The translations under genes were made by a program, and so were the position numbers. Positions 1,493-53,764 of a stretch of DNA of 64,000 nucleotides are shown piece by piece; position 1 is the stretch's first letter; each line of letters opens with the position of its first letter. The notes beneath the pieces were generated by a model, which worked only from the letters and a program-made list of their open reading frames with translations, searched no databases and was not told where the DNA came from. The stretch is from an uncultured SAR86 cluster bacterium (GTDB lineage Bacteria > Pseudomonadota > Gammaproteobacteria > Magnimaribacterales > D2472), in assembly GCA_902622845.1 (NCBI GenBank), contig CACNRI010000002.1, positions 196,398-260,397 on the forward strand. Reading direction: 5' to 3'.

Positions 1493-1520
1493 TATTGCTC
1501 TAGTACCTTAAAATAAATAT

Positions 1521-2516
1521 ATGAAGATGGCCATTCTAAAAAGTGTTTTCCTACTCATTATCTTTTCTAATGATATTTTTGCAAAGGATTTTGATGATCT
1601 TTTTAAAATTAGTATAGAAATAAAGAATGAGAACATAGAAAATTCCATTGACCGAGCATTTAATGACCTTGTTTTTAGACTCATAGGTTATGAGGATCTT
1701 GAAACAGCAAAAATTATTAGAGACAACTTTGATTCAAAAGATTTTCTCAGAAGATATGCTGTTGTAAGAAATAATGATGGTAACTTTCTTCAAGCTTCAT
1801 TTGAAGAGGACATTGTAATGAGTCAATTTATTGAAAATGGTATTAGTTTTATTGGAAGAAATAGACCAATTATTTTTTTAGACATCCAAATTGACAATGG
1901 CTTTGATAAACCCTTCAAAATAGAGTCAATACCTTATGAAACAAGTTTAGAATCATCAATAAAAAGAATTTTTGATGATATTTCAGAAAAACGAGGACTT
2001 TTCTTTGAATTTCCTCAAAACACAATAAATCTAGATGATAAAAATTACTTTTTTGATAACGAAAACGACAATGACTTCGATCAATATAAGTATGATTATC
2101 TTGAATCATTAATTATTTCAAGATCCGGAATCAATAATTGGTCAATTAGTTATAAAGACCAGATAGCATTTTTTGAAAACATTGATGAAATTACCGAAAG
2201 GATTAGATTTTTATTCGAGAATTTATCTGTAGATTACCTTAGTGACTTTGTTTTGGATAACTCAGAAAGGAAGTTGATGATGACGGTTACTAAAGTTTCT
2301 TCAGCTGAACATTTAGATAATCTTTTAGAAGCTCTAGATAAAATGATTTCTATTAAAGAATACTCAATTAAATCATTTCAGCAGGATGAAATATCCTTTT
2401 CTTTAACAATTTTTGGGACGGAAGATCAATTCAAGAAGTCCGTTCAAACACATAAAGATTTTTCAATCGAAAGCACCGCAACAGAAAAAATTCAGGCATC
2501 ACTAAATTCAATATGA
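1521..2516 (+). CDS. DUF2066-like periplasmic protein
   Basis: Signal peptide; position divergent from purM and upstream of a CDP-alcohol transferase and hda matches the usual gammaproteobacterial DUF2066 slot. Sequence is divergent. Confidence 0.6.
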   Translation: MKMAILKSVFLLIIFSNDIFAKDFDDLFKISIEIKNENIENSIDRAFNDLVFRLIGYEDLETAKIIRDNFDSKDFLRRYAVVRNNDGNFLQASFEEDIVMSQFIENGISFIGRNRPIIFLDIQIDNGFDKPFKIESIPYETSLESSIKRIFDDISEKRGLFFEFPQNTINLDDKNYFFDNENDNDFDQYKYDYLESLIISRSGINNWSISYKDQIAFFENIDEITERIRFLFENLSVDYLSDFVLDNSERKLMMTVTKVSSAEHLDNLLEALDKMISIKEYSIKSFQQDEISFSLTIFGTEDQFKKSVQTHKDFSIESTATEKIQASLNSI

Positions 2517-3061
2517 AGCATTATTTAAGATTTATACCTAACCTTATTTCTTTAGTAAGAATATCTTTGGTCATTCCAACAGTTCTTAATCTTCTTGCCG
2601 GGAAATATATTTTTGCATTGATTTTATTTGCCATTGCATCAATTTCAGATGCCATCGATGGTTTTCTAGCTAGATTTTTTAAATGGCAAACAGATTTAGG
2701 AAAAATCTTGGACCCAGTTGCTGACAAGCTTCTTATGATTGGCTCAATAACTGCACTTTGGTTGAATCAAATTGTTCCTCTATCAGTTTTTGTAATTTTT
2801 GTTCTTAGAGACCTGCTTATTCTTCTTGGTGCAGCATTCGAGATGTCAATTACGGAAAAAACTCCATCTCCAAATTTAATTGGAAAGATAACCACAACCT
2901 CTCAAATAATCTATATTTTAGGTTTGATAATCTTTGAAATCTTCAATGTGGATACAAATCCCCTGTTTTTCCACATTTTAATAGGCTTTATTACATTATT
3001 TAGCCTTATAAGTTATTTCAGATGGTGGTTTAAAAATAATTTCATAAATCAAAATGCCTAA
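2513..3061 (+). CDS. CDP-alcohol phosphatidyltransferase (PgsA-like)
   Basis: PNLISLVRI start; DAIDGFLAR-x8-GKILDPVADK signature; multiple TM segments. Confidence 0.9.
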   Translation: MKHYLRFIPNLISLVRISLVIPTVLNLLAGKYIFALILFAIASISDAIDGFLARFFKWQTDLGKILDPVADKLLMIGSITALWLNQIVPLSVFVIFVLRDLLILLGAAFEMSITEKTPSPNLIGKITTTSQIIYILGLIIFEIFNVDTNPLFFHILIGFITLFSLISYFRWWFKNNFINQNA

Positions 3062-3749
3062 TCCTCGCCAACTTGCTCTTCAAATTCAAATTAATGAAAG
3101 AGCATCTTTGAATAATTTCTTTGTTTCTAAAAACAATAATAAAACTATCCAAATCCTTAAAGATCTACTCAACTCGAATAACGGGGCTCAGATATTTATA
3201 GACGATCTAGGCAGTAATGGAAAAAGCTACTTGCTTCAGGCTATTTGCAATGATTTTTCTAATTCTAATAATTCATCAATTTATATCCCTATGCACGAAG
3301 TAATAAATCTTGATCCTTCAATACTTGAAGGGGTAGGCGAACTTAATTTAATTTGTATTGATGATGTAGATCTTATAAGTAAACGAAGAGAGTGGGAGAT
3401 TGCACTTTTTAATCTCATTAATGAATGCTATGAAAAAGAGTGCCTTCTTTTATTATCAGGTAGCATTAATAAGCTTGAGGCAATTCCTGATCTTGTCTCT
3501 AGGATAAAAAAAATGGAAATATTAAGATTAGAGGCTATAAACGATGATGAGTTGTTAGAAGCAACCCAAGCAATCTCTAAAAATCTTAATATAAAAATTT
3601 CTGATAAAAATTTGAATTATCTTATGAATAATTCTAGAAGAGATATTAAAACTATATTCAGGACTCTATCTCAGCTTGAGAAAGAGTCCCTAGAAAGAAA
3701 AAAATCTATAGGTCTAAATCTTATAAAAGAAGTTATTCGAAGTTCTTAA
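3054..3749 (+). CDS. hda: DnaA regulatory inactivator Hda
   Basis: N-terminal QLALQI clamp-binding-like motif; degenerate Walker A (GSNGKS); ICIDDVD, WEIALFNLINE, PDLVSR; synteny with purM. Confidence 0.9.
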   Translation: MPNPRQLALQIQINERASLNNFFVSKNNNKTIQILKDLLNSNNGAQIFIDDLGSNGKSYLLQAICNDFSNSNNSSIYIPMHEVINLDPSILEGVGELNLICIDDVDLISKRREWEIALFNLINECYEKECLLLLSGSINKLEAIPDLVSRIKKMEILRLEAINDDELLEATQAISKNLNIKISDKNLNYLMNNSRRDIKTIFRTLSQLEKESLERKKSIGLNLIKEVIRSS

Positions 3750-6706: not shown

Positions 6707-6723
6707 GTCTCAAAATAGGTTTG

Positions 6724-7176
6724 ATGCAAAATTTTATAAAAATATTACCACTTTTTATACTCTTTTATTCTTGTAGTTCAGGCGATATCCATTTTAATAA
6801 AGCAAATAGTCAATTCAAGAATGATCTTGATGAAAGCTGGATAGTTATTAATTATTGGGCCGACTGGTGTCCGCCATGTTTAAAGGAAATGCCAGAATTA
6901 GTAAATTTCGCACAATCTAATCCTGATATTGAAGTATTTGCATACAATTTTGATCGTCTTGAACCAGAATACTTAGATCCTTTAATATTAAGATTCGGTG
7001 TTGATATTCCATCTATAACTTCCCACCCAAGAGAGGTATGGGGCATAGAATCTCCAGCAATTTTACCTGCAACATATTTTATTAAACCAGGAGGGGAGGT
7101 TGTGCTAAGTCTTCTTACTCCTCAGACTGAGGCAAGTCTGCAGGAACATCTTGATAGTCTGCAAGGAGATTCATAG
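6724..7176 (+). CDS. TlpA-like thiol:disulfide oxidoreductase (possible lipoprotein)
   Basis: INYWADWCPPCLKEMP (CxxC), LPATYFI; possible lipobox FYSC. ORF track starts at TTG 6721. Confidence 0.88.
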   Translation: MQNFIKILPLFILFYSCSSGDIHFNKANSQFKNDLDESWIVINYWADWCPPCLKEMPELVNFAQSNPDIEVFAYNFDRLEPEYLDPLILRFGVDIPSITSHPREVWGIESPAILPATYFIKPGGEVVLSLLTPQTEASLQEHLDSLQGDS

Positions 7177-7933: not shown

Positions 7934-9287
7934 TCTTCTTTCCTACTTTAGCTTCAAAAGATCCCTTAGCTAACTTAGCAGTTATTTCTTCGCCTTCGTT
8001 AATTTGTGCAGAATCTTTAATTACATCTCCTTTTATATTAGTTATTAAAGAATATCCTCTATCAAGGACATTCTGAGGATTGATCGATTTTATAACTTTT
8101 TCATAAGTAACAAGTCTTGATTGAGATTTGCTTAGAAAAGCTTTAATTAAAGTTTTCAAAGATTGATGATTCTTTTGCAAAGCATTTTTGTTATCAAGAA
8201 TTAAATATTTAGGGTTTTCTATCATTAAAGAGTTTGTATTTTCTTTAAAGGACAATTTAGAGTCCGAGATTTTTTGCTTAACAAGCATTTTTATTTTTTC
8301 ATAAGTCGACATAAGAACTCTATATTGCTCTCTTATTGCATGGGCTGGATGTTTTAAGTGAGAGCTTTGATAATCAAGGGTTTGATTTTTATCTCTTAAG
8401 ATATTCTTGATACTAGACACCAAATCTTTTGATATTTCTGAAAGCTTTTCGATAAGATTAAAATTAAACTCACTTACAATTTCTGCAGCTGCAGTTGGAG
8501 TAGGGGCTCTGAGATCCGATACAAAATCAGCAATCGTAAAGTCTATTTCGTGGCCAACACCAGAAATTACAGGAATTTCAAAGCTAAATATCTCCCTAGC
8601 TAAATCTTCATTATTAAAACACCACAAATCTTCTATTGAACCTCCGCCTCTGCATAAAAGAACGCAATCAACCTTATTTGAAGAGTTGTTGTTATAATTT
8701 TGTATTCTTTTAAAGGCTTCAATAATTGTTTCGGATGCATTTTCACCTTGAACTGTTGCAGGACTTACTGAAATTTTCATACTTGGAGCTCTTCTTTCAA
8801 TCGTTGATAATATATCTTGTAACGCAGCAGTCGAAGTAGAAGTAATAACAGCAACATGTTTTGGTGCTTCAGGAATAGGAACTTTGTTTGCATCATCAAA
8901 GAGGCCTTCATCTTTTAGCTTGTTCTTAAGCTTTTCAAACTCTTGCATTAGATTTCCTTGGCCAGCAAGAATCATTTTCTTAGCAATAAGTTGATAATTA
9001 CCTCTTTGAACAAATAGGCTTATATTTCCTGAGACAATGCATTCATCACCATCTTTAGGATTGAAATTAAGACCCATGTTACTCCCTTTAAACATCGCAC
9101 ACTGAATTGAACCTTCATCATCTTTCAGAGAGAAATAAATATGACCAGATGCAGGCCTTGCTAAATTTGAAATTTCTCCAATAACTGAAACGGCAGGGAA
9201 GTTACTTTCTAGGAGGTATTTCGCAGATCTATTCAATTCCCCAACTGAGATTATTTCATTATTCTGCTCTACAATATCTTTGTCCAT
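7926..9287 (-). CDS. xseA: Exodeoxyribonuclease VII large subunit
   Basis: SVGELN, GEISN, SGHIYFSLKD, RGGGSIEDLW.FN, SGVGHEIDFTIADFVSDLRAPTPTAAAE. Start reassigned from 9449 to ATG 9287. Confidence 0.96.
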   Translation of the reverse strand: MDKDIVEQNNEIISVGELNRSAKYLLESNFPAVSVIGEISNLARPASGHIYFSLKDDEGSIQCAMFKGSNMGLNFNPKDGDECIVSGNISLFVQRGNYQLIAKKMILAGQGNLMQEFEKLKNKLKDEGLFDDANKVPIPEAPKHVAVITSTSTAALQDILSTIERRAPSMKISVSPATVQGENASETIIEAFKRIQNYNNNSSNKVDCVLLCRGGGSIEDLWCFNNEDLAREIFSFEIPVISGVGHEIDFTIADFVSDLRAPTPTAAAEIVSEFNFNLIEKLSEISKDLVSSIKNILRDKNQTLDYQSSHLKHPAHAIREQYRVLMSTYEKIKMLVKQKISDSKLSFKENTNSLMIENPKYLILDNKNALQKNHQSLKTLIKAFLSKSQSRLVTYEKVIKSINPQNVLDRGYSLITNIKGDVIKDSAQINEGEEITAKLAKGSFEAKVGKKNV

Positions 9288-9304
9288 GAACAGAGTATAG
9301 CTAG

Positions 9305-10183
9305 ATGTTAAAAAATTTACAGGGAGCAAATTTCTTTTTAATACTATCCCTAGGAGCAATTTTGATAGGATTCGCACCAATATTTGTAAAGTGGAGTGAG
9401 CTTTCTTCTTCAGCGATATTATTTTGGAGAATGTTTCTGGCATTACCAATGCTGGCCATCCTTAATTATTTTCTTAATAAGACTTTTATTTTTAAGGTCA
9501 AAAATAAAAATACTATTTTATATACTGCAATAGCTTCTCTTGCATTCACAACTGATCTAATTCTTTGGCACTACAGTATGAATATAACTTCAGTTTCAAA
9601 TGCAACGATAATAGTGAACTCCGCTCCAATATTTGTAGCTCTTTTTGCCTATCTCATTTTCAAGGAAGTGCCCGCAAAAGGTTTCGGCGTTTCTTTTTTA
9701 ATAACTTACCTGGGAATAACTGGACTAATTATTTTTTCTAGCAATTATGCAAATGGAAAAATAATTGGCGATTTATTATGCATCATAGCCGCTATTGGCT
9801 ATGGAATATATTTGTTAATAATTGCCAAGCTAGGAAAAGAAACATCCCTGAACTTAATATTTTATACAACTCTTTTCTGCTGTCTTTTTTCAATTATTCC
9901 AATGATGCTAGATTCAGGAGTTAATTTTCCTAAATCAAATTTTGAATGGATTAATTTAATTTTGCTTGCTCTAGTTTGTCAATTTGGTGGCCAGTTTTTA
10001 ATAACATATGCTATTGGAAAGATCTCACCATCAAACGGTTCTATTGGATTGTTAATGCAGCCACTTACTGCAACAATTTTAGCTGCCTACTTATTTTCAG
10101 AATGGCTCAATCTTGCACAAATAATTTTTGCTGCTGTTACCCTCGTTGGAATATATTTTGCAAGACTAAGCATTACAAAATAG
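9305..10183 (+). CDS. DMT/EamA family transporter
   Basis: About 10 TM segments in two EamA-like repeats (NATIIVNSAPIFVAL; LLMQPLTATILAAYLFSEWL). Confidence 0.88.
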   Translation: MLKNLQGANFFLILSLGAILIGFAPIFVKWSELSSSAILFWRMFLALPMLAILNYFLNKTFIFKVKNKNTILYTAIASLAFTTDLILWHYSMNITSVSNATIIVNSAPIFVALFAYLIFKEVPAKGFGVSFLITYLGITGLIIFSSNYANGKIIGDLLCIIAAIGYGIYLLIIAKLGKETSLNLIFYTTLFCCLFSIIPMMLDSGVNFPKSNFEWINLILLALVCQFGGQFLITYAIGKISPSNGSIGLLMQPLTATILAAYLFSEWLNLAQIIFAAVTLVGIYFARLSITK

Positions 10184-10238: not shown

Positions 10239-10266
10239 TTGTATAGTCTAAATTAGCCAATATAAT
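10239..10266 (+). promoter_or_regulatory. Sigma70 promoter for tRNA-Val
   Basis: TTGTAT, 16 nt, TATAAT, ending 10 nt before the tRNA. Confidence 0.65.
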
Positions 10267-14168: not shown

Positions 14169-15000
14169 GAGTTTTCCTAGCAGCCTCCATAGTATTTAGA
14201 ATTAAAGTATTAATTGTCATTGGGCCCACACCACCCGGTACAGGGGTATACGAGGAAGCTATTTCTTCAATTCCATCTAAATCAATATCGCCACATTTTT
14301 CAGGATGGTAACCAGCATCGATTACTACAGCACCTTTTTTGAGCCATTCTTTTTTTATTAGCTTGGGAACACCAACTGCACCAACTACTAAATCTGCATT
14401 ACGCACATGATCCTCTAATTCCTTAGTTCGAGAATGACAAATCGTTACAGTTGCATTTTTGTTAAGAAGCATCATTGCCATCGGCTTTCCTAGAATAGGG
14501 CTTCTTCCAACTACAACAGCATTCATTCCAGATATGTCTACATCATAAAATTCAAGAATTCTCATAATCCCTGCAGGTGTGCATGATCCATATGCAGATA
14601 GACCCATAGACATTCTTCCAAAACCCAGGCATGTAACTCCATCAACATCTTTTTCTATGGAAATTCTCTCAAAACATTCTCTTTCATTGATTTGATTAGG
14701 GACTGGATGTTGCAACAAAATACCGTGAATTTTTTTATCATTATTTAGCTCATCAATTTTCAAAAGGAGTTCTTCTGTAGATGTTTCTTTAGGTAAATTA
14801 ATAGCTAATGATTCCATACCAACTCTTTTGCAAGTTTCTTGTTTCATTCTTACATATGTTTCAGATGCTGGATCGTCGCCCACAAGAATAGTTGCCAAGG
14901 TGGGAATTATTCCTTTTTCCTTTAAGACTGATACAGATTCCAAGATCTCTTTTTCAGAGTCACTTGCGAGTTTCTTTCCATCGAGTATTTGTGCTGGCAT
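14161..15000 (-). CDS. folD: Bifunctional methylene-THF dehydrogenase/cyclohydrolase
   Basis: [55 protein letters not shown]. Confidence 0.98.
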
Positions 15001-15041
15001 TTCAATATTTTCTCATCTTAAAATAATTATTCCAATGAAGA

Positions 15042-24404: not shown

Positions 24405-24432
24405 AGGGTGCTTATTATGCACCCTTTTTTTT
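24405..24432 (+). terminator. Intrinsic terminator of hupB
   Basis: AGGGTGC-ttattat-GCACCCT followed by a T-run. Confidence 0.85.
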
Positions 24433-24450
24433 ATTATAATAATCACGTTT

Positions 24451-26301
24451 ATGGATGCATTAAGATCTTTTTTATCAGGGCCAAGGTTGGCTATTATAGG
24501 AATTCTCCTAGCTATACCATTTGTTTTTTTTGGATCGAGTAGTTTTGGAACTGTTTTTACTAACTATGGAAAGGTTAATGGCCTTACTGTATCTACTCTA
24601 GACGTAAGTATAGCAATTAATTCAGTTACTTCTCGATTGCAGCAAATATATGGAGATGACTTTACTGTTGAAAGCCTTGAAGAGGGTATTTTTAATAATC
24701 TTGTAAGAAATGAAATTGTTAGCCAAAAAGCTTTACTCTATCAAGTAAAACAAATGAATTTAGTGAATTCTGAGGATGAGGCTAAAAGATTGATAATGTC
24801 TGAACCATCTTTTCAAACAGACGGATTATTTGATCAAAATATATTTGAAGCTACCATAAGGCAAAATGGTATTTTGCCCAATGAGTACATTGAGAATATT
24901 CAAAATAGCTCACTTGTGAATGACTTTCTTTTAGCTATATCTGATTCAAGCTTCCAGATTGAGGCAGAGCTCAAGAATCAAATCAGGCTTATAGAGCAGG
25001 AGAGAAATATAGATTTTTTTAAGATTGATTTTAATGCGCTTAAAAGCAATATCAATCCTAGTCTAGAAAATGCTCTTGAGTATTATGAATCTAATCAGCT
25101 TTTATTTATGGATGATGAAAAAAGATCATTTAATTTGCTATCGATTTCTCAAGATAGATTTAAAGAGCTTGTGGAAATACCTGAAGACTTTATAGAAAAT
25201 GAATACAAAGACTACTTAGAAAGGATAAATGCTCTAGCTGAAAGAAGAATTTCTCACATAATGGTTGAAGCCTCTAACTATGCATCTAAAGAGGATGCAT
25301 ACAATGCTTTATTATCAATACAAAATAAAATTGGTAATGATCTAACATTTGAAGAAGCTGCTGAGCAGTTTAGTGAAGATTTAATATCAGCTGATCAGCA
25401 AGGAGATTTAGGTTTTTCTAGTGGAGATAGTTTTCCTCCTGAGTTTGAGATTGCTCTTGATTCAATGTCTGTAGGAAGTTTGTCTGAAATCATAGAGCTT
25501 GAGGAGTCATTGCACATAATTAAATTTACTGAACAGAATAAAGAAACTCCAAAATCTAAAGAGAGCATGTCAAAACAGTTTGTTTCTGATCTATTAGAAG
25601 CTGAATCATATGCTCTAATGCTCGATCTAAGAGATGAAATTGAAGATTTATTGTTAAGTGGATTCTCAGTCGAGGCTATTGCGAATGAGTTCAATCTTGA
25701 GTTCTCTGTGAGCAATAAGACAAGTTATGAAGATTTTGAAATATATGATAATCCAGCTATCAGAGACTTTCTTTATGGAATTGATTTTCCAAGTGATTTT
25801 GCCGAAATTTTTGAACTTGATGATAGAGTCTTAGTAGCTTCTGTTTCAGAAGTAGTTGCTCCCTCAGTTCTTCCTTTTGATCAAGTAACAGACGATGTAT
25901 TTGAACGATTGAGAATAGATCAAGCTAATTTGGATTTAGTGGATTTAACAAATGACTTAGTGGCTGCAATAAATGACGATACTTTTGTATTGGATAATAG
26001 TAATGTTCTTCAAGACAGTTTTACTTCTGTAAAAAGAGGCTCATCACTATTTCCTGCGAATGTACTGAATGAAATTTTTTCATCTTCTATTGACTCAGTC
26101 CAAAATATTAGAGCTTTCAACTCAGATATATATGTATTCAAGGTTACTAAAATAACTGAACCATCTGATGATTTTATTAGCTCCATAATCACAGATTATG
26201 ATAATTTCTCTTCAACAACGTCTCTTGTTAAACTTAACTTGATTATTGAAAAAGAAATAAATAGTCGAATAAGAGATAATATTAAAAACTTAAATATTTA
26301 A
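24451..26301 (+). CDS. ppiD: Periplasmic chaperone/PPIase PpiD
   Basis: N-terminal TM, SurA-like domain, parvulin segment (RRISHIM...FEEAAEQFSED...GDLGF...PEFE); follows hupB. Confidence 0.85.
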   Translation: MDALRSFLSGPRLAIIGILLAIPFVFFGSSSFGTVFTNYGKVNGLTVSTLDVSIAINSVTSRLQQIYGDDFTVESLEEGIFNNLVRNEIVSQKALLYQVKQMNLVNSEDEAKRLIMSEPSFQTDGLFDQNIFEATIRQNGILPNEYIENIQNSSLVNDFLLAISDSSFQIEAELKNQIRLIEQERNIDFFKIDFNALKSNINPSLENALEYYESNQLLFMDDEKRSFNLLSISQDRFKELVEIPEDFIENEYKDYLERINALAERRISHIMVEASNYASKEDAYNALLSIQNKIGNDLTFEEAAEQFSEDLISADQQGDLGFSSGDSFPPEFEIALDSMSVGSLSEIIELEESLHIIKFTEQNKETPKSKESMSKQFVSDLLEAESYALMLDLRDEIEDLLLSGFSVEAIANEFNLEFSVSNKTSYEDFEIYDNPAIRDFLYGIDFPSDFAEIFELDDRVLVASVSEVVAPSVLPFDQVTDDVFERLRIDQANLDLVDLTNDLVAAINDDTFVLDNSNVLQDSFTSVKRGSSLFPANVLNEIFSSSIDSVQNIRAFNSDIYVFKVTKITEPSDDFISSIITDYDNFSSTTSLVKLNLIIEKEINSRIRDNIKNLNI

Positions 26302-31208: not shown

Positions 31209-31951
31209 TCTCGAATATATTTGAAGATTTCTTTTTCCGAAGGATTATCTAATCCAATTTTTTTTATGAGATGCATATTATCACTTAAGACATCACATCT
31301 TAAAAAAGGATTTGTTTTTTTTTCTAGCCCAATGGAAGAGGGAAGTGAGGAACCATGTTCTGTAAGAAGGTTGTCAATTTCAGTATTTCTCATTATTAGG
31401 TCATTATTTTTTGGTTCGACTTCAACTGAAAACAGTAGGTTGCTCTTTGTATACTCATGACCGCAATAGATTTGTGTGCTGTCTGGTAATTGCTTTAATT
31501 TATTAAGAGATTCAAACATTTGATCAAATGTACCTTCAAAAACTCTTCCACATCCACCAGCAAACAAGGTATCTCCGCAAAAGAGAATATTATTTTCCTC
31601 ATTATAAAAAGCTATGTGATCAAGAGTGTGGCCTGGAACCTCAATGATTTCAAATTTTATTCCCAGACTAGAAAGAGTATCTCCTTGAGTGACTTTTTCA
31701 TTTATTAGTTCGTAACTATTTTTAGGTCCATAAATAGATCCAGAAATTATATTTTCTAATTCAGGTACTCCAGCAGTATGATCAAAATGGTGATGGGTTA
31801 TAAAAATATCCCTTAAATTTTTATTGGTTTTACTTAAATAATCTAGAACAGGTTTCGCATCACCTGGGTCAACAACAGAAACCTCTTCATTAGTTTCAAG
31901 CAACCAAATATAATTATCAGTGAAGGCCTTTAATGGTTTAATATTAATCAC
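31190..31951 (-). CDS. gloB: Hydroxyacylglutathione hydrolase (glyoxalase II)
   Basis: [42 protein letters not shown]. Start reassigned to GTG 31951 (track: TTG 31957). Confidence 0.95.
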
Positions 31952-31974
31952 ATGCAAATTTTACAACTAACGAG

Positions 31975-36224: not shown

Positions 36225-37648
36225 AAAATAACTTTTGCGAAGTAGTATGCAAAAACCGTCACTACAAAAATGCCTGCAATGTTAATAAGGAACCCGGCAC
36301 GCATCATATCAATAATTTTAAATTTATTAGCACCATAAACAATTGCATTGGGTGGCGTTGCAACTGGAAGCATAAATGCGCAACTAGCAGCAAGCACCAC
36401 AGGAACTGTCAATACTTCTGGCGCAACACCAACAGCAACTGCAACTGCTCCAAAAACTGGCAAGAAGGTTGAGGTTGTAGCAACATTGCTTGTTACTTCA
36501 GTCAAAAATATTATTAGTGCAGCAACAGCCATGACTAGGATTACCAATGGAACTGTTTTGAGACTTATCAGACTTTGGCCAATCCAAAGACCTAAACCGG
36601 TGTCATTAATTTGGACGCCAAGAGACAGGCCTCCACCGAAAAGAAGTAACAAACCCCATGGGAGTTTGCTTGATTGCTCCCATGAAAGCAATTCTCCATT
36701 TCTTCCACTTGATGGGATTATAAAGAGAGCAATAGCAACTATAATTGCAATGCCAGCATCAGTAAGACCAATTACATAGTTATCAATTAGACTCCTGAAC
36801 ATCCACAAACCTGCAGCAATGAAGAAGACAATCCCAACTCTAAACTCATCTTTAGACATAGGACCCATATCAGTCAGCATTTTTGCAAGAGTATTCTTTG
36901 TTTCATTCGATGAAGCAAAATCCACTGGATATACAACTTTAGTAAGAATTATCCAAGCTAATGTAAGCATACAAATTGAAACTGGAACACCTAACTTCAT
37001 CCAATCAATCATAGAGATTTCTAATCCATAAACTTCTTGCATGAATGAACTAAAAACAATATTTGGCGCTGTGCCAACAAGCGTAGACATGCCTCCAATA
37101 GTTGCTGCATATGCAATAGAAAGTAGAAGAGCCTTATCAAAGTTACTTTTATCCTTTTCAGACATATTTGGAACAGTTTTTGCTACAACTGAACAAATCG
37201 CAAGACCAATTGGAAGTAGCATCAGAGTAGTAGATGTATTCATTACCCACATGCTAATTAAAGCAGAGACAAGCATGAATCCACCAATGAGTTTAGGTCC
37301 ATCTGAGCCAAGTCTTTTAATCATAATTAATGCAAGACGCTTGTGAAGACCTGATCTTTCAATTGCCAGGGCAATTAAGAACCCACCTAAAAAAAGATAG
37401 ATGTTTTTATTTGCATATGGAAGCGCTGCTGTTTCAATTGAAGTAACACCAAGAATCGGGAAAAGTGCAAGCGGCAATAAAGAGGTAACAGGTATTGGTA
37501 TAGCTTCTGTTGCCCACCAAGTAACCATTAATACCGCAACAGCTGCAACCAACCACGCACTTTCAGTTAAACCATTAGGTGAGGGCAATATGATAATTGC
37601 TAAAAAAAGAAATATACCAATCCAAAAACCTCTTTTTCTTAAAGCCAT
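36221..37648 (-). CDS. SLC13/DASS family Na+:anion symporter
   Basis: WWATEAIP, SMWVMNTSTT and TEVTSNVAT (SNT motifs), TLVGTAPN, FMLPVATPPNA. Confidence 0.9.
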   Translation of the reverse strand: MALRKRGFWIGIFLFLAIIILPSPNGLTESAWLVAAVAVLMVTWWATEAIPIPVTSLLPLALFPILGVTSIETAALPYANKNIYLFLGGFLIALAIERSGLHKRLALIMIKRLGSDGPKLIGGFMLVSALISMWVMNTSTTLMLLPIGLAICSVVAKTVPNMSEKDKSNFDKALLLSIAYAATIGGMSTLVGTAPNIVFSSFMQEVYGLEISMIDWMKLGVPVSICMLTLAWIILTKVVYPVDFASSNETKNTLAKMLTDMGPMSKDEFRVGIVFFIAAGLWMFRSLIDNYVIGLTDAGIAIIVAIALFIIPSSGRNGELLSWEQSSKLPWGLLLLFGGGLSLGVQINDTGLGLWIGQSLISLKTVPLVILVMAVAALIIFLTEVTSNVATTSTFLPVFGAVAVAVGVAPEVLTVPVVLAASCAFMLPVATPPNAIVYGANKFKIIDMMRAGFLINIAGIFVVTVFAYYFAKVIF

Positions 37649-37664
37649 AAATCAATTATAGGAT

Positions 37665-37692
37665 AAAAAAAGGGAGCATAAAGCTCCCTTTT
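37665..37692 (-). terminator. Intrinsic terminator of TonB receptor 1
   Basis: AAAAGGGAGC-ataaa-GCTCCCTTTT; 7-T tract on the minus strand. Confidence 0.85.
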
Positions 37693-42334: not shown

Positions 42335-43120
42335 TTATTCAGTTTTAGGAATTGTACTCATTGCAGAAGTGTTAAAACCAGCATCTACATATGTTATTTC
42401 ACCTGTAATACCACTTGCTAAATCTGAACATAAAAAAGCTGCAACATTTCCAACTTCCTCAGTAGTTACAGTTCTTCCAAGTGGCGCTCTGTCTGCGTAT
42501 TCTGTTAGCATGCTTCTAAAATCTTTTACACCAGATGCAGCGAGAGTTTTAATTGGGCCTGCTGAAATTGCATTTACCCTTATTCCTCTTTTACCAAGTG
42601 AGGCTGCTAAAAATCTTGTATTTGCTTCAAGGCTCGCTTTAGCAAGTCCCATTACATTATAGTTAGGCAATGATTGAATTGACCCAAGATAAGTTAAAGT
42701 CAAAAGGGCAGCATTTTTGTTTAAAAGAGGAAGAGATGCTTTCGCAAGAGCAGTAAAGCTGTATGAGCTAATATCATGAGCAATCTGAAAACCCTCCCGC
42801 GTTGTTACCTCGGTAAAATCTCCTTCAAGCTGATCTGATGGAGCAAAACCGATTGAGTGAACTAATCCATCAATATTCTCCCACTTTGATCCTATTTCTT
42901 TAAATGCTCTATCTATAGATTTATCAGACGAAACATCACATTCTATTAGTAACTCAGCCCCTAACTCATCAGCAATTGGCTTAATTTTTTTTAAAAATCT
43001 CTCATTTTGATATAAAAATAATAGTTCTGCCCCATGAGCAGCCATAGATTTAGCTATTCCGCTTGCAATTGAGAATTTATTAGCTAATCCGGTGATTATG
43101 AATTTTTTGTTATTTAGCAT
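42335..43120 (-). CDS. fabI: Enoyl-ACP reductase (NADH)
   Basis: [63 protein letters not shown]. Alternative TTG start at 43135. Confidence 0.96.
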
Positions 43121-43245
43121 TTTTCGATTTGTCAAATTAAATTATAAGCCAATAAAACATTTGTTTACATTCTTTTGAATAAATGGTTCCATAAATTACT
43201 GATGTAGCATTATTTGCTGCTTTTTTTAAAAAATAGGGGGGAAGT

Positions 43246-47801: not shown

Positions 47802-47813
47802 AATATTTAAAAG

Positions 47814-48313: not shown

Positions 48314-49063
48314 TTAGATTCTTTTATTAAGCATTTTCCATACCTTGGAAGTAATTTTCATTCCAAGAAATGGCCTTACTAACTTATAGGCTATGCCAGG
48401 AATAACGGTACTCTTTCCAGCTCTAGAAGCTTTTTCAGTCGTCCTTACAACCTTTTCAGCAGATACCCACATCCAAAAAGGTATTTTCTTTTCTAGATGA
48501 TCAAGACCAGCTCTTTTGTGCGCATTTGTTTTAACATAACCTGGAAGTGAGATAGTGACAGAAACATTTTCATCTGCTAGCTCCTCGCCAACCGATCTTC
48601 CATAAGAATAAATAGCAGACTTTGCAGATGCATATAATGAAGATTTTGGCATTGGTGTTACTGCTCCTATGCTTGAAATAATGACAATCCTTGAAGCATC
48701 TTTCTCTTTTAACCTTGGAACCAATCCCTCTATTAAATCAATAACTCCACCACATAAAAGATAATATAATTCATCTCTTTGCAATGAGGTGCTCTCACCA
48801 GCTTTGCTCATCATAGTAATGCCAGCATTAGCAACAACAAGATCTGGACAATCTACTTTTTCAAGCAGCTCTAAAATAGAATCTTTCTTCGAGAGATCAA
48901 AATGAAAATAGTTATTATTATTATTTTGAAAGAACTCTCTTGCTTTTTTTGATCTTTCTTCACTATGGGAAATTAAATCTAAAGACCAACCATTCTGGTT
49001 TAAATGCTTAGCGTACTCAAAACCAATTCCTGAAGAAGCTCCTGTAATTAATGCTTTTTTCAT
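48314..49063 (-). CDS. Short-chain dehydrogenase/reductase
   Basis: TGASSGIG, ANAG, ISS, YASAK, PGYVKT. Start moved from 49105 to ATG 49063. Confidence 0.9.
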   Translation of the reverse strand: MKKALITGASSGIGFEYAKHLNQNGWSLDLISHSEERSKKAREFFQNNNNNYFHFDLSKKDSILELLEKVDCPDLVVANAGITMMSKAGESTSLQRDELYYLLCGGVIDLIEGLVPRLKEKDASRIVIISSIGAVTPMPKSSLYASAKSAIYSYGRSVGEELADENVSVTISLPGYVKTNAHKRAGLDHLEKKIPFWMWVSAEKVVRTTEKASRAGKSTVIPGIAYKLVRPFLGMKITSKVWKMLNKRI

Positions 49064-49096
49064 CTTTATTATTTTAATTGGGATTATAATCTTTTT

Positions 49097-50050
49097 ATGA
49101 AACATTTTGGTTTGAGATCGACATTTTCATTGATTGTTGCAATCACTTTTGTAAACTCCTGCGGCGGCGGTGGAGGAGGTACTGATCCTATACCTCAGAC
49201 CTCAAATACTTCTCCCTTTTTCGTAAATAACATTGGTGAGATTGAGGTTGATGAAATGCAATTATCTGTTGCTACCATTTCTGCTAGTGATAATGATGGA
49301 GATATACTTCAATACAGTCTCTCAGGGAATGATCCTTCCTATTTTTCTATAACCAATGAAGGAGTAATAACCTTTAATCAGCCCCCGAATTATTTTGATA
49401 AGAATGAGTTCTCAATTTTGATAAATGTAACTGATAATATTGCTTCAATTTCTCAAACACTTACAGTTTTTCTTTTGAGAGTTTGTTCAGACAGTTTTTT
49501 TGGCAGAACAGTATGTTTTGAAGAGGAAAATACAAGTGTTGAATATGATAGATCAAATGATTATCCAACATGGCAAGATTGGGATGGCGATTGTCAGAAT
49601 AATAGACATGAAGTGCTTGAATCTGAACATATTGATGATGATTCTAATCATCCCTTAGTTTTTTCATCAGACGGATGTTTCGTCAATTCTGGCAAATGGT
49701 TTGATCCATACGATAATCTTTATTATTTTTCTTCTTCTGAAGTCCAAATAGATCATGTTGTTGCATTATTTGAAGCACATAAAAGTGGAGCTTGGAGCTT
49801 TCCAGCTTCAAGAAAACTAAAATTCGCTAACAATATTGATTTTGATGATCTTTTAATTGCAGTGGGAGGTTCATCAAATGCAAGCAAAGGATCATCAGAT
49901 CCATCTAACTGGATGCCAGATAATGCCTCTTATCATTGTGAATATCTAAATAAATGGCTCAACATTAAATCTGAGTTTAGGTTAAGTCTTGATTTGGATG
50001 AGAGAGATACGATCACCACTCTTTATCAAGAAAAAAATTGCCAAAATTAA
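49097..50050 (+). CDS. Lipoprotein with cadherin-like domain and C-terminal DUF1524/HNH nuclease domain
   Basis: VNSC-GGGGGG; ASDNDGDILQYSLSGND..YFSI...G.ITF..PPNY (cadherin-like); DCQNNRHEVL, W.DPYD, QIDHVV, GAW, LIAV..SSNASKG.SDP..WMP, CEY...W. Confidence 0.8.
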   Translation: MKHFGLRSTFSLIVAITFVNSCGGGGGGTDPIPQTSNTSPFFVNNIGEIEVDEMQLSVATISASDNDGDILQYSLSGNDPSYFSITNEGVITFNQPPNYFDKNEFSILINVTDNIASISQTLTVFLLRVCSDSFFGRTVCFEEENTSVEYDRSNDYPTWQDWDGDCQNNRHEVLESEHIDDDSNHPLVFSSDGCFVNSGKWFDPYDNLYYFSSSEVQIDHVVALFEAHKSGAWSFPASRKLKFANNIDFDDLLIAVGGSSNASKGSSDPSNWMPDNASYHCEYLNKWLNIKSEFRLSLDLDERDTITTLYQEKNCQN

Positions 50051-50116
50051 GTTTTTTTTATAAACATAATAATTTTTTTATTGAAATTGATGTATGATTT
50101 TATAAGGAGGGATTTT

Positions 50117-50902
50117 ATGAATAAAAATATTTTTTACTTAACAGCTTTACTTTTTATTTTTGGTTGTTCAAACCAAGATTCTGAACCTGAGGCGATGGAA
50201 ACCGCAGGTGCTCAAAGCCTTTTGCTTGAGTATATGTGGTGCGACTTTGGTCCCAATACATCTGGGGAAAGTTTAGATAAGCTGGTTGCAGATTTTAATG
50301 AGGTAACCAAAAATTCAGATCATCCAGTTGAGAGTGCTTGGGGATATTTTCCAACATTTGAAACAGATGCATATGATGCTATTTGGTTGAATGTGTGGTC
50401 TGATGAAGATCAAAGAAATGCTGGCTGGAAAGATTGGGCTGCAGACAGCCAAGAAGATTTTGAAGCGAAGCACAACGATACTCTTAACTGTCGAGAAGAT
50501 AGAATTTTTCAATTTACAGGTACTGCAGGAATGACACCAAGAGTTGAGTGGACTGCTGAGCCACCATTTAATGCCGATTTTTATTTCTGTACTTTCAAAG
50601 GTGAAAACGGAATGGATGAACTTATGCCTATAATGGCGGATTATGATGCATGGGTTGAAGGAACAGAAGAGGATAGCATGTGGTATGTATGGCATGACCC
50701 ACTATTTGACACTTCAAATGCTAGTGGCTCTGTTCAAGATGGCTATGACTATGCAATCGGCTTTTACTGGCAAAATGCTGCTGAAAGAGAGGCTAGTTAT
50801 AGTAATTATGATGAGACAGATTTCGGATCTAGATTTGATGAAATTGAATCATGTGAAACACTAGAATTCGAGGGGTATCCTATAGTTCAACCATCTTCTT
50901 AA
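50117..50902 (+). CDS. Uncharacterised acidic lipoprotein with two internal repeats
   Basis: AAGGAGG SD, lipobox IFGC (Cys17), tandem ~100-aa repeats, followed by a terminator. Start moved from 50081. Confidence 0.8.
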   Translation: MNKNIFYLTALLFIFGCSNQDSEPEAMETAGAQSLLLEYMWCDFGPNTSGESLDKLVADFNEVTKNSDHPVESAWGYFPTFETDAYDAIWLNVWSDEDQRNAGWKDWAADSQEDFEAKHNDTLNCREDRIFQFTGTAGMTPRVEWTAEPPFNADFYFCTFKGENGMDELMPIMADYDAWVEGTEEDSMWYVWHDPLFDTSNASGSVQDGYDYAIGFYWQNAAEREASYSNYDETDFGSRFDEIESCETLEFEGYPIVQPSS

Positions 50903-50916
50903 AATTAGCTATTTTT

Positions 50917-50941
50917 AAAAAGGGAGCTTGCTCCCTTTTTT
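50917..50941 (+). terminator. Intrinsic terminator after the repeat lipoprotein
   Basis: AAAAAGGGAG-cttg-CTCCCTTTTT(T). Confidence 0.85.
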
Positions 50942-50959
50942 AATTTATAATTAACTTTA

Positions 50960-51733
50960 ATGTCTAAACTGTTTGATCTTTGTAATAAGAATGTTTTGCT
51001 AACTGGAGCGTCCAAAGGGATGGGGCTGGCCATGGCTCAAGGTTTAGTGAATCATGGAGCTAATGTTGTTGTATCAAGTAGAAAACTTGATCAATGTGAA
51101 AAAGCTGTAGAGATAATTAATGAATCTATTGGAAAAGAAAAAGCATTTGCATTTTCTTGTAATGCATCAAGCAAAGATGAATTGAATGCACTTGTAGACT
51201 TTTCATTATCCAAGCTTGGATCAATTACGACTTTAGTTTGTAATGCTGGTGTAAATTCATTTTTTGGTTCCATGTCTGAAATAGATGATGAGTCATATGA
51301 TAAGACCATGGATACTAATGTTAAGTCTAATCATTGGTTAATAAATATGGTCACACCTTCAATGAAAGAATCAGGAGGTGGGTCAATTATGATTACTTCT
51401 AGCATTGCAGCATTCCATGCCTCTGAAACTTTGGGTGCATATAGCATTTCAAAGCTTGCTGTGTTGGGTTTAGTGAGAAACTATGCCTCTGAATTAGGTC
51501 CTTCAAATATTAGAGTAAATGCAATTTGCCCAGGACTTGTCAAAACAGATTTTTCAAAACTCTTATGGGAAAATCCAGATGCTGAAAAAGCTTCAAGCCA
51601 GAAGATGCCGCTCAGAAGGCTTGGTGAAGCTGATGATTTTAAAGGAGTTGCAGTTTTTCTTGCTTCTGATGAAAGCTCTTTTATGACTGGTCAGGCATTA
51701 ACTATCTGTGGCGGCGCAAGCATGTGGTCGTGA
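50960..51733 (+). CDS. Short-chain dehydrogenase/reductase (DHRS4-like)
   Basis: TGASKGMG, CNAG, YSISK, NAICPGLVKTDFS, PLRRLGE.DD. Confidence 0.9.
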   Translation: MSKLFDLCNKNVLLTGASKGMGLAMAQGLVNHGANVVVSSRKLDQCEKAVEIINESIGKEKAFAFSCNASSKDELNALVDFSLSKLGSITTLVCNAGVNSFFGSMSEIDDESYDKTMDTNVKSNHWLINMVTPSMKESGGGSIMITSSIAAFHASETLGAYSISKLAVLGLVRNYASELGPSNIRVNAICPGLVKTDFSKLLWENPDAEKASSQKMPLRRLGEADDFKGVAVFLASDESSFMTGQALTICGGASMWS

Positions 51734-51744: not shown

Positions 51745-52332
51745 TTAATCTAAAAGTTTTGTGGCTTCGTTAAAATGTTTTCTGCATAAAACTCTGTATA
51801 CATCATTACCACCAATTTGAACTTTTGATCCCTTAGTTACAACCTTCCCACTCTCATCAAGCCTAACAACCATAGTTGCTTTCTTACTGCACTCATTACA
51901 GACTGTTTTAAGCTCAATGAGATTATCTGCTAATGCTAAAAGAGACCCACTTCCTTCAAATAGCTCTCCTCTAAAATCTGTTCTTATGCCATAACACATT
52001 ACAGGAATCCCTAATTCATCGCAGACTTTACACATTTGAAGTACATGATGTTTTTTTAGAAATTGAGCTTCATCAACAAGAATTGCATCGATATTTCTTT
52101 TTGCATTTTCTTCTTCGACGTATTCAAAGATTTTAAATTTTGAATCAATTACAACGGCAGAGGCGCTAAGTCCAATTCTTGATTTTATTAGTCCAGAATT
52201 CTTATCAGCATCTTCTCTTGGAATAAATAAAATTGTTTCATTGCCTGTTTCATGATAATTATGGGCCGATTGAAGTAATGCCGTAGATTTACCAGCATTC
52301 ATAGTTGAGTAAAAAAAGTGAACCTTAGCCAT
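51745..52332 (-). CDS. tdk: Thymidine kinase
   Basis: YSTMNAGKST, VDEAQFL, YGIRTDF, GS.SLLA.AD, CNEC and CRKH Zn ligands, IGG. Confidence 0.96.
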   Translation of the reverse strand: MAKVHFFYSTMNAGKSTALLQSAHNYHETGNETILFIPREDADKNSGLIKSRIGLSASAVVIDSKFKIFEYVEEENAKRNIDAILVDEAQFLKKHHVLQMCKVCDELGIPVMCYGIRTDFRGELFEGSGSLLALADNLIELKTVCNECSKKATMVVRLDESGKVVTKGSKVQIGGNDVYRVLCRKHFNEATKLLD

Positions 52333-52338
52333 AAGGAA

Positions 52339-52346
52339 ATTATAAT
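52339..52346. promoter_or_regulatory. Palindromic bidirectional -10 element ATTATAAT
   Basis: Gives TATAAT on both strands, each exactly 6 nt from the ATG of tdk (52332) and of the Smr-like gene (52353). Confidence 0.7.
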
Positions 52347-52352
52347 GGTTTT

Positions 52353-52586
52353 ATGAAAACTTTTGTTGAGAATGGAATTACTCATTTGGATCTTCATGGA
52401 GTAAGACATCACGAGGTGCATGAACTTGTACTTGATTTTGTTTTAAGGAATCAAGAATTAATTCCTTTAGTTATAATATGTGGCAACAGTGTTAAGATGA
52501 TTTCTATTACCAAATCCTGCCTAGATATAAACAAAATAAAATATCAAGATATTAGGTTCGGATTAATCAGAGTTGAGAAAATTTAA
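52353..52586 (+). CDS. Minimal stand-alone Smr-domain-like protein
   Basis: LDLHG and IICGNS resemble the Smr LDLHG and IITGxG motifs; 77 aa. Confidence 0.6.
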
Positions 52587-52600
52587 TTTATAATACTTGC

Positions 52601-53764
52601 ATGAGTAAACTTCCAGACTTACTTCTCTTTGATCAGCAATTAACAGAAGAGGAGCTCGCTATTCAAAAAACTGTAAGAGATTATTGTGATAAATCTCTCA
52701 TGCCAAGAATCCAAAAAGCTAATAGAGAAGAACTTTTTGATAAAGAAATTTATAAAGAGCTTGCAGCTTTAGGTTTACTCGGTCCTCACATAAAAGGGTA
52801 TGGCTGTGCTGGGGTAAGTAATGTTGCTTATGGATTGATTGCTAGAGAAATTGAGAGAGTTGATTCAAGTTACAGATCTGCTTTTAGTGTTCAGTCATCG
52901 TTGGCAATGTATGCAATTTATAAGTTTGGCTCTGAAGAGCAGAAAGAGCACTATCTACCTGAAATGGCTAAAGGCAATATCATAGGTTGCTTTGGCCTGA
53001 CCGAACCAGATGCTGGCTCCGATCCTGCTGGCATGAAATCAGTTGCAAAAAAAGTAGATGGTGGATTTGAATTAACGGGGTCTAAGACTTGGATAACAAA
53101 TTCACCAATCGCTGATCTATTTATTATTTGGGCTAAAGATGAGCAGGGCGTCTTGAGGGGATTTATCTTAGAGAGAGAGGAGGCTAAGGGATTAGAGACT
53201 CCTTACTTGGATGGTAAATTTGCATTACGCGCATCAGCAACTGGAATGATATTTATGGATCAAGTATTTGTTTCTGAAGATAAAGTGCTTCCAGATGTAC
53301 AAAGTTTTAAGGGCCCATTTACATGTCTAAATTCTGCAAGATATGGAATTGCTTGGGGTGTAATGGGAGCTGCAGAATTTTGTTGGGAGAAATCACTTGA
53401 ATATACTCTCGACAGAAATCAATTCAATGCCCCTCTAGCATCAAAACAACTTGTGCAAAAGAAATTGGCTGATATGCAAACTGAGATTTCATTGGGAATG
53501 CAGGCTGCCCTCAGAGTTGGAAGATTGATAGATGAAAATAATTTTGTTCCAGAGATGATTTCGTTAATCAAGAGAAATAATTGTCAAAAGGCTTTGGAAA
53601 TTGCTAGATCAGCTAGAGATATTCATGGTGGTAATGGAATCAGCGACGAATACCATGTGGTAAGACATTCAATGAATTTGGAGGCTGTTAACACTTATGA
53701 GGGCACAAGTGATATTCATGCCCTCATCCTTGGTCAAAAACAAACTAATATTTCAAGTTTTTAA
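52601..53764 (+). CDS. gcdH: Glutaryl-CoA dehydrogenase
   Basis: [78 protein letters not shown]. Confidence 0.92.

Follow-up and report, generated by a model that had tools for sequence, protein, structure and literature searches.

Whether genes may be transcribed from -10 boxes lying so close to their start codons that the mRNA begins on the start codon itself is a question raised by a stretch of DNA from a SAR86-cluster gammaproteobacterium. SAR86 bacteria are among the most abundant heterotrophs of the surface ocean, and are known almost wholly from single-cell and metagenome assemblies. The stretch, hereafter the window, comprises 64,000 nt with a GC content of 34-35%, and its gcdH product is 98% identical to GcdH of several SAR86 single-cell genomes. 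A total of ~57 protein genes and six tRNA genes were counted in it, the number of transcription units was inferred by manual count to be ~35, and, the coding density being high, the intergenic share is only 3.5% (2,252 nt). An earlier note had proposed that genes heading transcription units are pervasively preceded, at a distance of exactly 6 nt, by a TAnnnT hexamer and lack a Shine-Dalgarno (SD) sequence, which would place the transcription start on the start codon. The genes cited were DUF2066, xseA, gloB, the DASS/SLC13 symporter gene, a nuclease-like lipoprotein gene, tdk, a Smr-like gene and gcdH. All eight hexamer-6 nt-start junctions are present as written, and their coordinates were re-verified. 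It is likely, in our assessment, that sigma-70-type -10 boxes placed at start codons yield leaderless mRNAs in SAR86.

The spacer, i.e. the number of nucleotides between hexamer and start codon, was scored from 0 to 25 against 2,000 rounds of shuffling of each upstream region, with starts defined mechanically as the longest open reading frame (ORF) or first ATG; spacer-corrected P values refer to the highest count at any of the 26 spacers. Of the 53 window genes of ≥100 aa, four have exact TATAAT at spacer 6, as compared with 0.13 expected from the shuffles, and none of the 2,000 shuffles matched this count (P<0.0005, also after spacer correction). When the Smr-like gene is included, the count is five among 56 window genes with mechanical starts, and just three further TATAATs fall within spacers 0-25 of these genes. 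Internal ATGs, taken as a control (n = 1,277), gave about zero TATAAT at spacer 6. Searched across the window, TATAAT-N6-ATG has six matches versus 1.74 expected, five of them gene starts, and TATAAT overall is depleted (57 versus 88.8 ± 9 in shuffles), as are two-hexamer promoter-like sites (48 versus 71 ± 7). The depletion of TATAAT fits selection against spurious promoters where a -10 box alone may suffice. Among 20 hexamers of the same composition, only TATAAT peaks at spacer 6, barring its own one-base shifts, and the reverse complement ATTATA scores 0 at that spacer.

The loose TAnnnT rule behaves differently, with five occurrences at spacer 6 versus 2.4 expected (P=0.09, corrected P=0.58). 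At 34% GC this pattern is uninformative, and near-consensus boxes alone discriminate. The positional comparison with shuffled sequence that the earlier note had called for thus yields a sharp spacer-6 peak for exact TATAAT and leaves TAnnnT within background. Two near-start hits to the loose pattern were rejected. TAGAAT at spacer 7 of the DUF4389 gene codes for the conserved C-terminus of gpsA (VDVEF), and its distance varies in relatives; TAGGAT at spacer 5 of gene g3733 coincides with an SD, since relatives have GGAG at that site. These false hits and the non-significant TAnnnT count are what could be said for the pattern being a chance by-product of AT-rich sequence. As a global explanation this is refuted and hardly credible, in view of the significance of exact TATAAT and of boxes scoring strongly against a position weight matrix (P<0.0005), the independent replication described below, the absence of a peak for other hexamers of the same composition or for the reverse complement, and the deep conservation at xseA, folD and gloB; it is possible for weak single cases such as DUF2066.

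Replication was sought in ~140 further SAR86 loci, retrieved with gcdH (genomes), xseA (metagenomes) and HU plus DASS (contig look-ups) as anchors. Pooled with the window they comprise 611 unique genes in 154 orthogroups, 101 of which have no window member. In these 101 orthogroups TATAAT occurs four times at spacer 6, versus 0.26 expected (corrected P=0.0035). At the level of all orthogroups, a strong box stands at spacer 6 in 8 of 154, and in 0-3 at every other spacer from 0 to 39. The 232 unique genes from SAR86 lineages with 73-76% GcdH identity have TATAAT six times at spacer 6 and not once at other spacers between 0 and 20, the genes concerned including those for enoyl-CoA hydratase, alanine dehydrogenase and secreted proteins as well as tdk. 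A strain set retrieved round HU (L130-L139) is near-identical to the window and was uninformative. Metagenome contigs ending near the xseA start were considered as transcript ends and set aside, as they are ordinary assemblies and carry no information on transcription start sites (TSSs).

The strongest evidence comes from the orthologs of xseA, folD and gloB, in which box and spacing are held and the spacer sequence is free to drift. The xseA junction (9285..9299, minus strand) consists of TATACT at 9299-9294, the spacer CTGTTC and ATG at 9287-9285. TATA[AC]T stands at spacer 6 in 22 of 27 non-redundant orthologs with 46-99% amino acid identity, the others having it at spacer 7 (four) or 19 (one). 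In the spacer-6 set, positions -12, -11, -10, -9 and -7 are invariant, position -8 is C or A, and positions -4 to -1 are near random. The folD gene was absent from the earlier list because its hexamer begins with G. Its junction (14998..15015, minus strand) has an extended -10, TGaGAAAAT, at 15015-15007, the spacer ATTGAA and ATG at 15000-14998. Relatives read TGnGATAAT at spacer 6; among 13 non-redundant orthologs, TG at -15/-14 is found in 12, as are A-11 and T-7, position -12 being G/C, and the spacer is constantly 6 nt long in 12 distinct sequences. At gloB (31949..31963, minus strand), TAAAAT at 31963-31958 is followed by TTGCAT and GTG at 31951-31949. Five lineages have TA[AG]AAT at spacer 6, with the spacers TTGCAT, TTGTAT, CTAAAT, CTGCAT and CACCAT, and diverged lineages place ATG where the window has GTG.

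Another possibility is that the start codons are mis-assigned, with the true starts downstream and ordinary promoters giving short leaders in which an ATG happens to occur. The N-termini of the DUF2066, nuclease-like lipoprotein and Smr-like products have no profile anchor, and in some genes another ATG follows a few codons later, which leaves room for such an error. Elsewhere the starts are well anchored. For tdk the start is exact, as positions 1-191 of the NCBIfam profile align to residues 1-191. Orthologs of xseA align from residue 1 down to 46% identity, and those of gloB, gcdH, Smr and tdk do likewise, with the start codon conserved in place. The gloB GTG 31951 matches public gene calls (253 aa). 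In the ORFs of gcdH and DASS no start codon comes before the cited ATG, and the next one follows only after 20-33 codons. Moreover, there would be no cause for a non-functional ATG to be kept at a constant 6 nt from the box. Mis-assignment as a general explanation is therefore considered very improbable. The longest ORF does overshoot the adopted start in other places, by 54 codons at xseA (7926-9449), 14 at the short-chain dehydrogenase gene SDR-49063 (48314-49105), 12 at a lipoprotein gene (50081-50902) and eight at a TonB-dependent receptor gene (56047-59097). At xseA, the TIGR00237 profile first aligns to residue 68 of the longest ORF, in agreement with ATG 9287; the upstream TTG 9449 is excluded by the profile and would create a 145-bp overlap with the divergent gene. 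The start codons of the 11 core and probable cases discussed in this work are ATG in ten and GTG in gloB.

The box matches the sigma-70 -10 consensus, as judged by the five invariant positions at xseA and the TGn extension in 12 of 13 folD orthologs. Fourteen TATAATs of the window stand no more than 60 nt before a protein or tRNA gene on their own strand, at distances of 6, 6, 6, 6, 6, 8, 10, 10, 12, 19, 20, 26, 48 and 60 nt. Two of them precede tRNA genes, at 10 nt for tRNA-Val (10261-10277) and 12 nt for tRNA-His (18327-18345), which predicts tRNA 5' leaders of ~3-5 nt, and those at 19-26 nt belong to fabI, SDR-49063 and g59232, for which short leaders are predicted, the last with an SD. The tRNA-His box is also half of another ATTATAAT palindrome (18325-18332), facing gdh. 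The candidates with imperfect boxes are those with a 4-5/6 match to the -35 element or with TGn. With weighting by orthogroup, a box at 6-7 nt is found in 19% of the genes whose upstream neighbour is divergent, versus 3% of operon-internal genes, and an SD core is found in none of the 33 motif genes that come first in a transcription unit. The cited cases are likewise without a visible SD. RNA polymerase prefers a pyrimidine at -1 and a purine at +1. A pyrimidine stands at -1 in 8/8 cited cases and in 26/37 motif genes of the pooled set versus 309/574 others (p=0.06, 611 genes). The identity of the motif, its position, its orientation specificity, its conservation and its tendency to stand at unit heads are thus observed features.

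The same hexamer could in principle be read at the level of RNA, as a non-SD ribosome-binding signal or AU-rich enhancer of the GeneMarkS-2 'group B' pattern on leadered mRNAs. A position 6-8 nt before the start is the usual site of a ribosome-binding site (RBS) (10.1101/193490), and the genome is AT-rich and SD-poor. However, each position of the motif agrees with the -10 consensus (A-11 and T-7 do not vary, whereas -8 does), folD adds TGn, the hexamer also stands before tRNA genes, and a palindrome serves both strands at tdk/Smr. Unlike group B motifs, the box is rare before operon-internal genes (the 3% versus 19% given above), and the divergent gaps leave no upstream promoter position from which a leader could be made. 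A purely RNA-level role is thus improbable.

The hexamers would act as sigma-70 -10 elements, mostly as -10-only promoters and in one case, folD, as an extended -10. RNA polymerase most often starts at the seventh base after a -10 box, and with a 6-nt spacer this base coincides with the first letter of the start codon, so that polymerase would start on its A or G. The resulting mRNAs would have no 5' untranslated region, or one of ≤1-2 nt, and their 5'-terminal AUG would be translated without a Shine-Dalgarno interaction. Transcription thus probably starts on the start codon, and the products are probably translated as leaderless mRNAs. For the +1 position proposed earlier, the geometry, the conservation and the signature published for other bacteria agree; the TAnnnT rule, the word 'pervasive' and the account of small gaps that came with it fail or overreach. 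The core set for which leaderless mRNAs are probably made comprises xseA, folD, gloB, DASS, the nuclease-like lipoprotein gene, tdk, the Smr-like gene and gcdH. The DUF2066, thioredoxin-like lipoprotein and SDR-50960 genes are probably leaderless as well, and ppiD would be near-leaderless. Roughly a quarter to a third of the units (~8-12 of ~35; eight core, three probable, one near-leaderless) therefore probably carry a start-adjacent box, and 'pervasive' was an overstatement.

Several observations weigh against the conclusion that these genes are leaderless. With one representative per orthogroup, the differences between first and operon-internal genes (Fisher p=0.13), in SD exclusion (p=0.19) and in pyrimidine at -1 (p=0.12) are reduced to trends. 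A missing SD is weak evidence, because approximately two thirds of SAR86 genes, operon-internal ones included, lack an SD core in a simple test; the absence of an SD asserted in the earlier note is therefore true of the cited cases and undiagnostic. The best -35 match averages 3.1/6 versus 2.6 in the background, with 3/10 candidates reaching 4/6, so that any -35 or UP-like signal is a weak trend only, and a two-hexamer promoter scan includes zero candidates among its sites. Promoters of the -10-only or extended -10 type can do without a -35 (PMC12340547). A TGn extension can make up for a -35 that is weak or missing. The comparative loci represent three genomic neighbourhoods rather than whole genomes, and the literature searched holds no TSS or N-terminal data for SAR86. 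As for individual genes, DUF2066 taken singly may be inseparable from chance, the box of gcdH, Smr and the nuclease-like gene is kept within the close clade only, DASS is leadered with a predicted SD elsewhere, and gcdH lies 14 nt downstream of Smr, where read-through is also possible.

These points bear most directly on the possibility that the boxes are real promoters of minor or regulatory use, and that the translated mRNAs are mainly leadered, being made from upstream promoters or by read-through and translated by SD-independent initiation via S1 and AU-rich sequence or by coupling. Since most SAR86 genes have no SD core, SD-independent initiation on leadered mRNA must be common. Besides gcdH so close behind Smr, DASS, ppiD and SDR-50960 stand behind terminators that may be leaky, and the gcdH and DASS genes of other lineages come after a terminator, with no promoter visible. 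However, this explanation gives no account of a box that keeps its distance of 6-7 nt to the ATG in deeply diverged lineages as the spacer sequence drifts, and it fails in the 17-23-nt divergent gaps of xseA, gloB, tdk and Smr, where the DNA upstream is coding strand of the neighbour and there is no same-strand upstream unit. It is accordingly regarded as unlikely. Leaderless transcription is also consistent with the close packing of signals at three genes, where a terminator hairpin and T-run abut the box (37672-37688, minus strand, for DASS; ~24405-24432, plus strand, for ppiD; 50917-50940, plus strand, for SDR-50960) and therefore leave no room for a leader. At each of these sites terminator and promoter are packed into ~40 nt. 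An Rfam scan of the window identified the six tRNAs and no other RNA element, including at the candidate junctions.

The tdk and Smr-like genes form a back-to-back pair (52330..52355) of two core candidates, with the tdk ATG at 52332-52330 on the minus strand, the Smr-like ATG at 52353-52355 on the plus strand and a gap of 20 nt between them. Within this gap stands a perfect palindrome of 8 bp, ATTATAAT (52339-52346), in which TATAAT reads on the minus strand at 52344-52339 and on the plus strand at 52341-52346, each at spacer 6; the hexamers overlap by 4 bp with an offset of 2 bp. This single palindrome would serve as -10 in both directions and give rise to two leaderless mRNAs, the predicted starts of which are 21 bp apart. 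The same arrangement is found in the close clade with differing spacer bases, including three spacer variants for tdk. In other lineages tdk has TATAAT (L026) or TAAATT (L025/L027) at spacer 6, with ATG in 3/3, versus TTG in 7/8 lineages where the motif is absent. This switch from ATG with the motif to TTG without it fits the AUG dependence of leaderless translation.

Other divergent pairs are less symmetrical. The thioredoxin-like lipoprotein gene and a ~198-aa gene stand back to back in eight other SAR86 loci with gaps of 23-29 nt, and gloB and rnhA do so in two lineages. In the xseA/EamA gap and the gloB/rnhA gap of the window, the signature is on one partner only, with no box for rnhA or EamA in the gap; rnhA (31952-31977) lacks both an SD and a -10 at 5-8 nt. 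For the EamA transporter gene (9270..9307, plus strand; ATG 9305) there is no -10 within the 17-nt gap, and the candidate box, TACAAT at 9270-9275, lies ~29 nt upstream of the ATG in codons 5-6 of xseA, giving a predicted leader of ~22 nt. These xseA codons are ATT GTA or ATT TTA, with synonymous sites invariant in 26/26 non-redundant orthologs, and the opposite strand reads TACAAT or TAAAAT. This suggests that the putative EamA -10 is embedded in its neighbour's ORF. The signature occurs in 4/14 orthogroups with gaps of 16-40 nt and in 6/29 with large divergent gaps (>150 nt), and the idea that it is special to tiny divergent gaps was rejected on account of these similar frequencies. The earlier suggestion that leaderless starts explain how divergent genes fit into tiny gaps thus suits the tdk/Smr pair and does not extend to the signature as a whole, which is not commoner at tiny gaps and in some gaps serves a single partner. 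Leaderless starts are therefore one of several compaction devices.

Of the remaining core candidates, the DASS/SLC13 symporter gene (37646..37688, minus strand) has TATAAT at 37660-37655, the spacer TGATTT and ATG at 37648-37646, directly preceded by the terminator hairpin GGGAGC-TTTAT-GCTCCC and its T-run noted above. The box is kept with another spacer (ACAAAT) in a relative with 89% identity and is lost in an 81% lineage. Of two 68% lineages, one has TATAAT and a 16-nt leader with AGGGA, and the other TAGTAT at spacer 5. This distribution therefore indicates lineage-specific turnover between putatively leaderless and leadered forms. The nuclease-like lipoprotein gene (49085..49099, plus strand) has TATAAT at 49085-49090, the spacer CTTTTT and ATG 49097; close relatives have a 7-nt spacer, CTTTTTT, and the box is half of a ATTATAAT palindrome at 49083-49090. 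The gcdH junction (52589..52603, plus strand) consists of TATAAT at 52589-52594, the spacer ACTTGC and ATG 52601. This box would be an internal promoter, because it belongs to a gene beginning just behind the Smr-like stop codon. It is invariant in relatives with 94-98% GcdH identity, which have six spacer sequences, all of 6 nt, and is absent in SAR86 lineages at 73-76% identity. In other lineages (loci L140 and L013-L028), DASS and gcdH are located 8-10 nt after a terminator and have no box.

The probable cases have weaker or more distant boxes. DUF2066 (1509..1523, plus strand) has TAAAAT at 1509-1514, the spacer AAATAT and ATG 1521, with the best -35 match, TTTTCA (4/6), at 17 bp; the box is kept in two relatives (96% and 68% amino acid identity), the latter with the spacer AATTAT. 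The thioredoxin-like lipoprotein gene (6711..6726, plus strand), which is new with respect to the earlier list, has CAAAAT at 6711-6716, a 7-nt spacer, ATG 6724 and a -35 match, TTGAAA (5/6), at 16 bp, and its relatives in many lineages have TAAAAT or TATGAT at 6-7 nt. At SDR-50960 (50917..50962, plus strand), the terminator is followed by TATAAT at 50946-50951, an 8-nt spacer and ATG 50960, so that a leader of 0-2 nt is predicted. In seven relatives the box reads TATACT and stands 6 nt from the start, with seven differing spacer sequences, which bears out its earlier listing as a near case. For ppiD (24405..24453, plus strand), the terminator and T-run are followed by ATTATAAT at 24433-24440, a 10-nt spacer and ATG 24451, and the predicted leader of ~3-4 nt makes the gene near-leaderless.

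The other two near cases did not hold, so that the earlier near-case list was wrong in two of three entries, besides missing folD and the thioredoxin-like lipoprotein gene. For fabI (43118..43146, minus strand), TTG 43135 had been taken as the start. This codon is refuted by a relative (L010) that reads TTG ACA TAT TGA, with an in-frame stop, in a region with indels among relatives. The start is ATG 43120, 20 nt after TATAAT at 43146-43141, and the predicted leader of ~13 nt is SD-less, the gene not being leaderless. Just before this -10 box (~43150-43170, minus strand) is an imperfect palindrome, TGTAAACAAATGTTTTA, retained in relatives as tgtaaacaattgtgtaa, which is a candidate operator for a regulator of fatty-acid synthesis. 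At SDR-49063 (49061..49088, minus strand), a TAAAAT at spacer 7 had been proposed; this hexamer reads TAAAAA in relatives. TATAAT at 49088-49083 lies 19 nt before ATG 49063, which is confirmed by SDR profiles beginning at residue 15 of the longest ORF, and a leader of ~12-13 nt is predicted, which is not a leaderless arrangement. This box is the other half of the palindrome shared with the nuclease-like lipoprotein gene, and ATTATAAT is conserved there in relatives. A conventional unit for reference is g59232 (59200..59234, plus strand), with TATAAT at 59200-59205, 26 nt containing AAGGGA, and ATG 59232. Clear SDs precede the genes for three TonB-dependent receptors, HU, htpG, tig, gdh and two others. 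Highly expressed genes, i.e. those for the three TonB receptors, HU, htpG, tig and gdh, thus retain short leaders with an SD.

Gammaproteobacterial ribosomes can translate mRNA starting with AUG, and do so with strong AUG dependence. The leaderless mRNAs of E. coli, such as lambda cI from PRM and Tn1721 tetR, are isolated cases on mobile elements. The AUG dependence matches the ATG/TTG switch of tdk, and the SAR86 cases are instead chromosomal housekeeping genes that make up a sizeable share of units. The group B genes of Bacteroidetes also have an AT-rich motif a few nucleotides upstream of the start in an SD-poor genome, but their motifs are not -10-like and occur before operon-internal genes too, whereas that of SAR86 resembles a -10 box, tends to stand at unit heads and carries TGn at folD.

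Closer parallels are found among bacteria in which leaderless genes are common. Zheng et al. (2011) described the leaderless signature as TANNNT ~12 bp upstream, counted from the first T, and found 15 of 239 gammaproteobacterial genomes positive, with 3-5.7% of genes, mainly in Xanthomonadales and Legionellales (PMC3160421). GeneMarkS-2 places a Pribnow box 6-8 nt from the start and reports 25-50% of operons for group C, with 104 of 1,854 Proteobacteria in this group (10.1101/193490). Leaderless starts are rare among Proteobacteria in both surveys. The SAR86 genes share with these TA-led or group C genes a -10-like box, a spacer of 6-8, a tendency to operon-first position and the presence of SD-led genes alongside (PMC3160421; 10.1101/193490), and the rough estimate of 8-12 of ~35 units lies at or just below the 25-50% of operons of group C (10.1101/193490). 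They differ in host, as SAR86 is low-GC, streamlined and marine and the published strongholds are high-GC Actinobacteria and Deinococcus-Thermus, and in the box, which is near-consensus TATAAT rather than the degenerate TAnnnT of the published form. In Deinococcus radiodurans, reporters and mutagenesis have shown that an ORF-adjacent -10 works without a -35 (PMC12340547). That system resembles the SAR86 one in the -10 next to the ORF, the required spacing to the start codon and the coexistence of RBS-type (GGAG) genes (PMC12340547); it is experimentally validated, whereas the SAR86 case is drawn from sequence statistics and conservation.

For the tdk/Smr palindrome, the relevant comparison is with bidirectional promoters formed by -10 symmetry. 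In this class, described by Warman et al. (2021) and summarised in PMC10268837, one pseudo-symmetric -10 region drives transcription both ways, and the paired TSSs are 7-25 bp apart with a mode of 18 bp. The 21 bp between the predicted tdk and Smr starts is inside this range and off the mode, and the modal geometry has -7T and -11A reciprocally paired, unlike the 2-bp offset of the hexamers in ATTATAAT (PMC10268837). The products differ as well, being predicted leaderless protein-coding mRNAs on both sides at tdk/Smr and an mRNA with an antisense RNA in the described class (PMC10268837). The literature searched contains no report of leaderless mRNAs or TSS mapping for SAR86, and nothing relevant on leaderless starts was found in it for Pelagibacter or streamlining. 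The architecture is thus a known bacterial leaderless type, apparently unreported for SAR86, in which the near-consensus TATAAT in a low-GC genome and the palindromic back-to-back pairs predicted to be leaderless are less usual.

A broader proposal, which we judge to have an even chance of being correct, is that leaderless initiation is ancient and order-wide in SAR86. It would have been in place at xseA, folD and gloB since before the deepest sampled splits, and would serve a fifth to a third of units. SAR86 would then be the first abundant free-living marine gammaproteobacterial lineage with 'group C' type starts, and these, with minimal bidirectional promoters, would be part of the means by which the intergenic share reached 3.5%, alongside -10s embedded in ORFs and tRNA-mRNA co-transcripts. 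If leaderless starts apply to a quarter or more of units, gene finders that model an RBS only will misplace SAR86 starts, and work on SAR86 metatranscriptomes and expression prediction should use a dual start model. The gammaproteobacterial range of leaderless starts would extend past Xanthomonadales and Legionellales to a low-GC streamlined lineage, which would bear on the single loss of the trait proposed within the class (PMC3160421), and the packing of expression signals into 17-28-nt divergent gaps would gain a concrete, testable account. Compact, deeply conserved test cases for reporter work are provided by the junctions of xseA, folD and gloB.

At all four tRNA loci of the window (10413-10499, 15158-15257, 18345-18441 and 47726-47816), a protein gene on the same strand comes 6-20 nt after the tRNA, the pairs being tRNA-Asp/DUF4149, tRNA-Arg/rhodanese-like, tRNA-His/tig and tRNA-Ala/aroK. 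This layout suggests tRNA-mRNA co-transcripts, and processing of the tRNA 3' end would then leave the mRNA with a very short leader.

Some loci met in the comparison carry other taxonomic labels. Locus L005 (PBXW01000141.1), labelled Crocinitomicaceae, is 97% identical to SAR86 genes of the window with a matching neighbourhood, and protein P0043, labelled Flavobacteriaceae, is 86% identical to a SAR86 gene product of the window; both are probably mis-binned SAR86 DNA in public metagenome-assembled genomes (MAGs). A gcdH ortholog in a Pelagibacteraceae MAG (L046:9974) reads TAAAAT-6 nt-ATG, and an Anaerolineae MAG locus (L033) has TAnnnT at spacer 6 in three genes.

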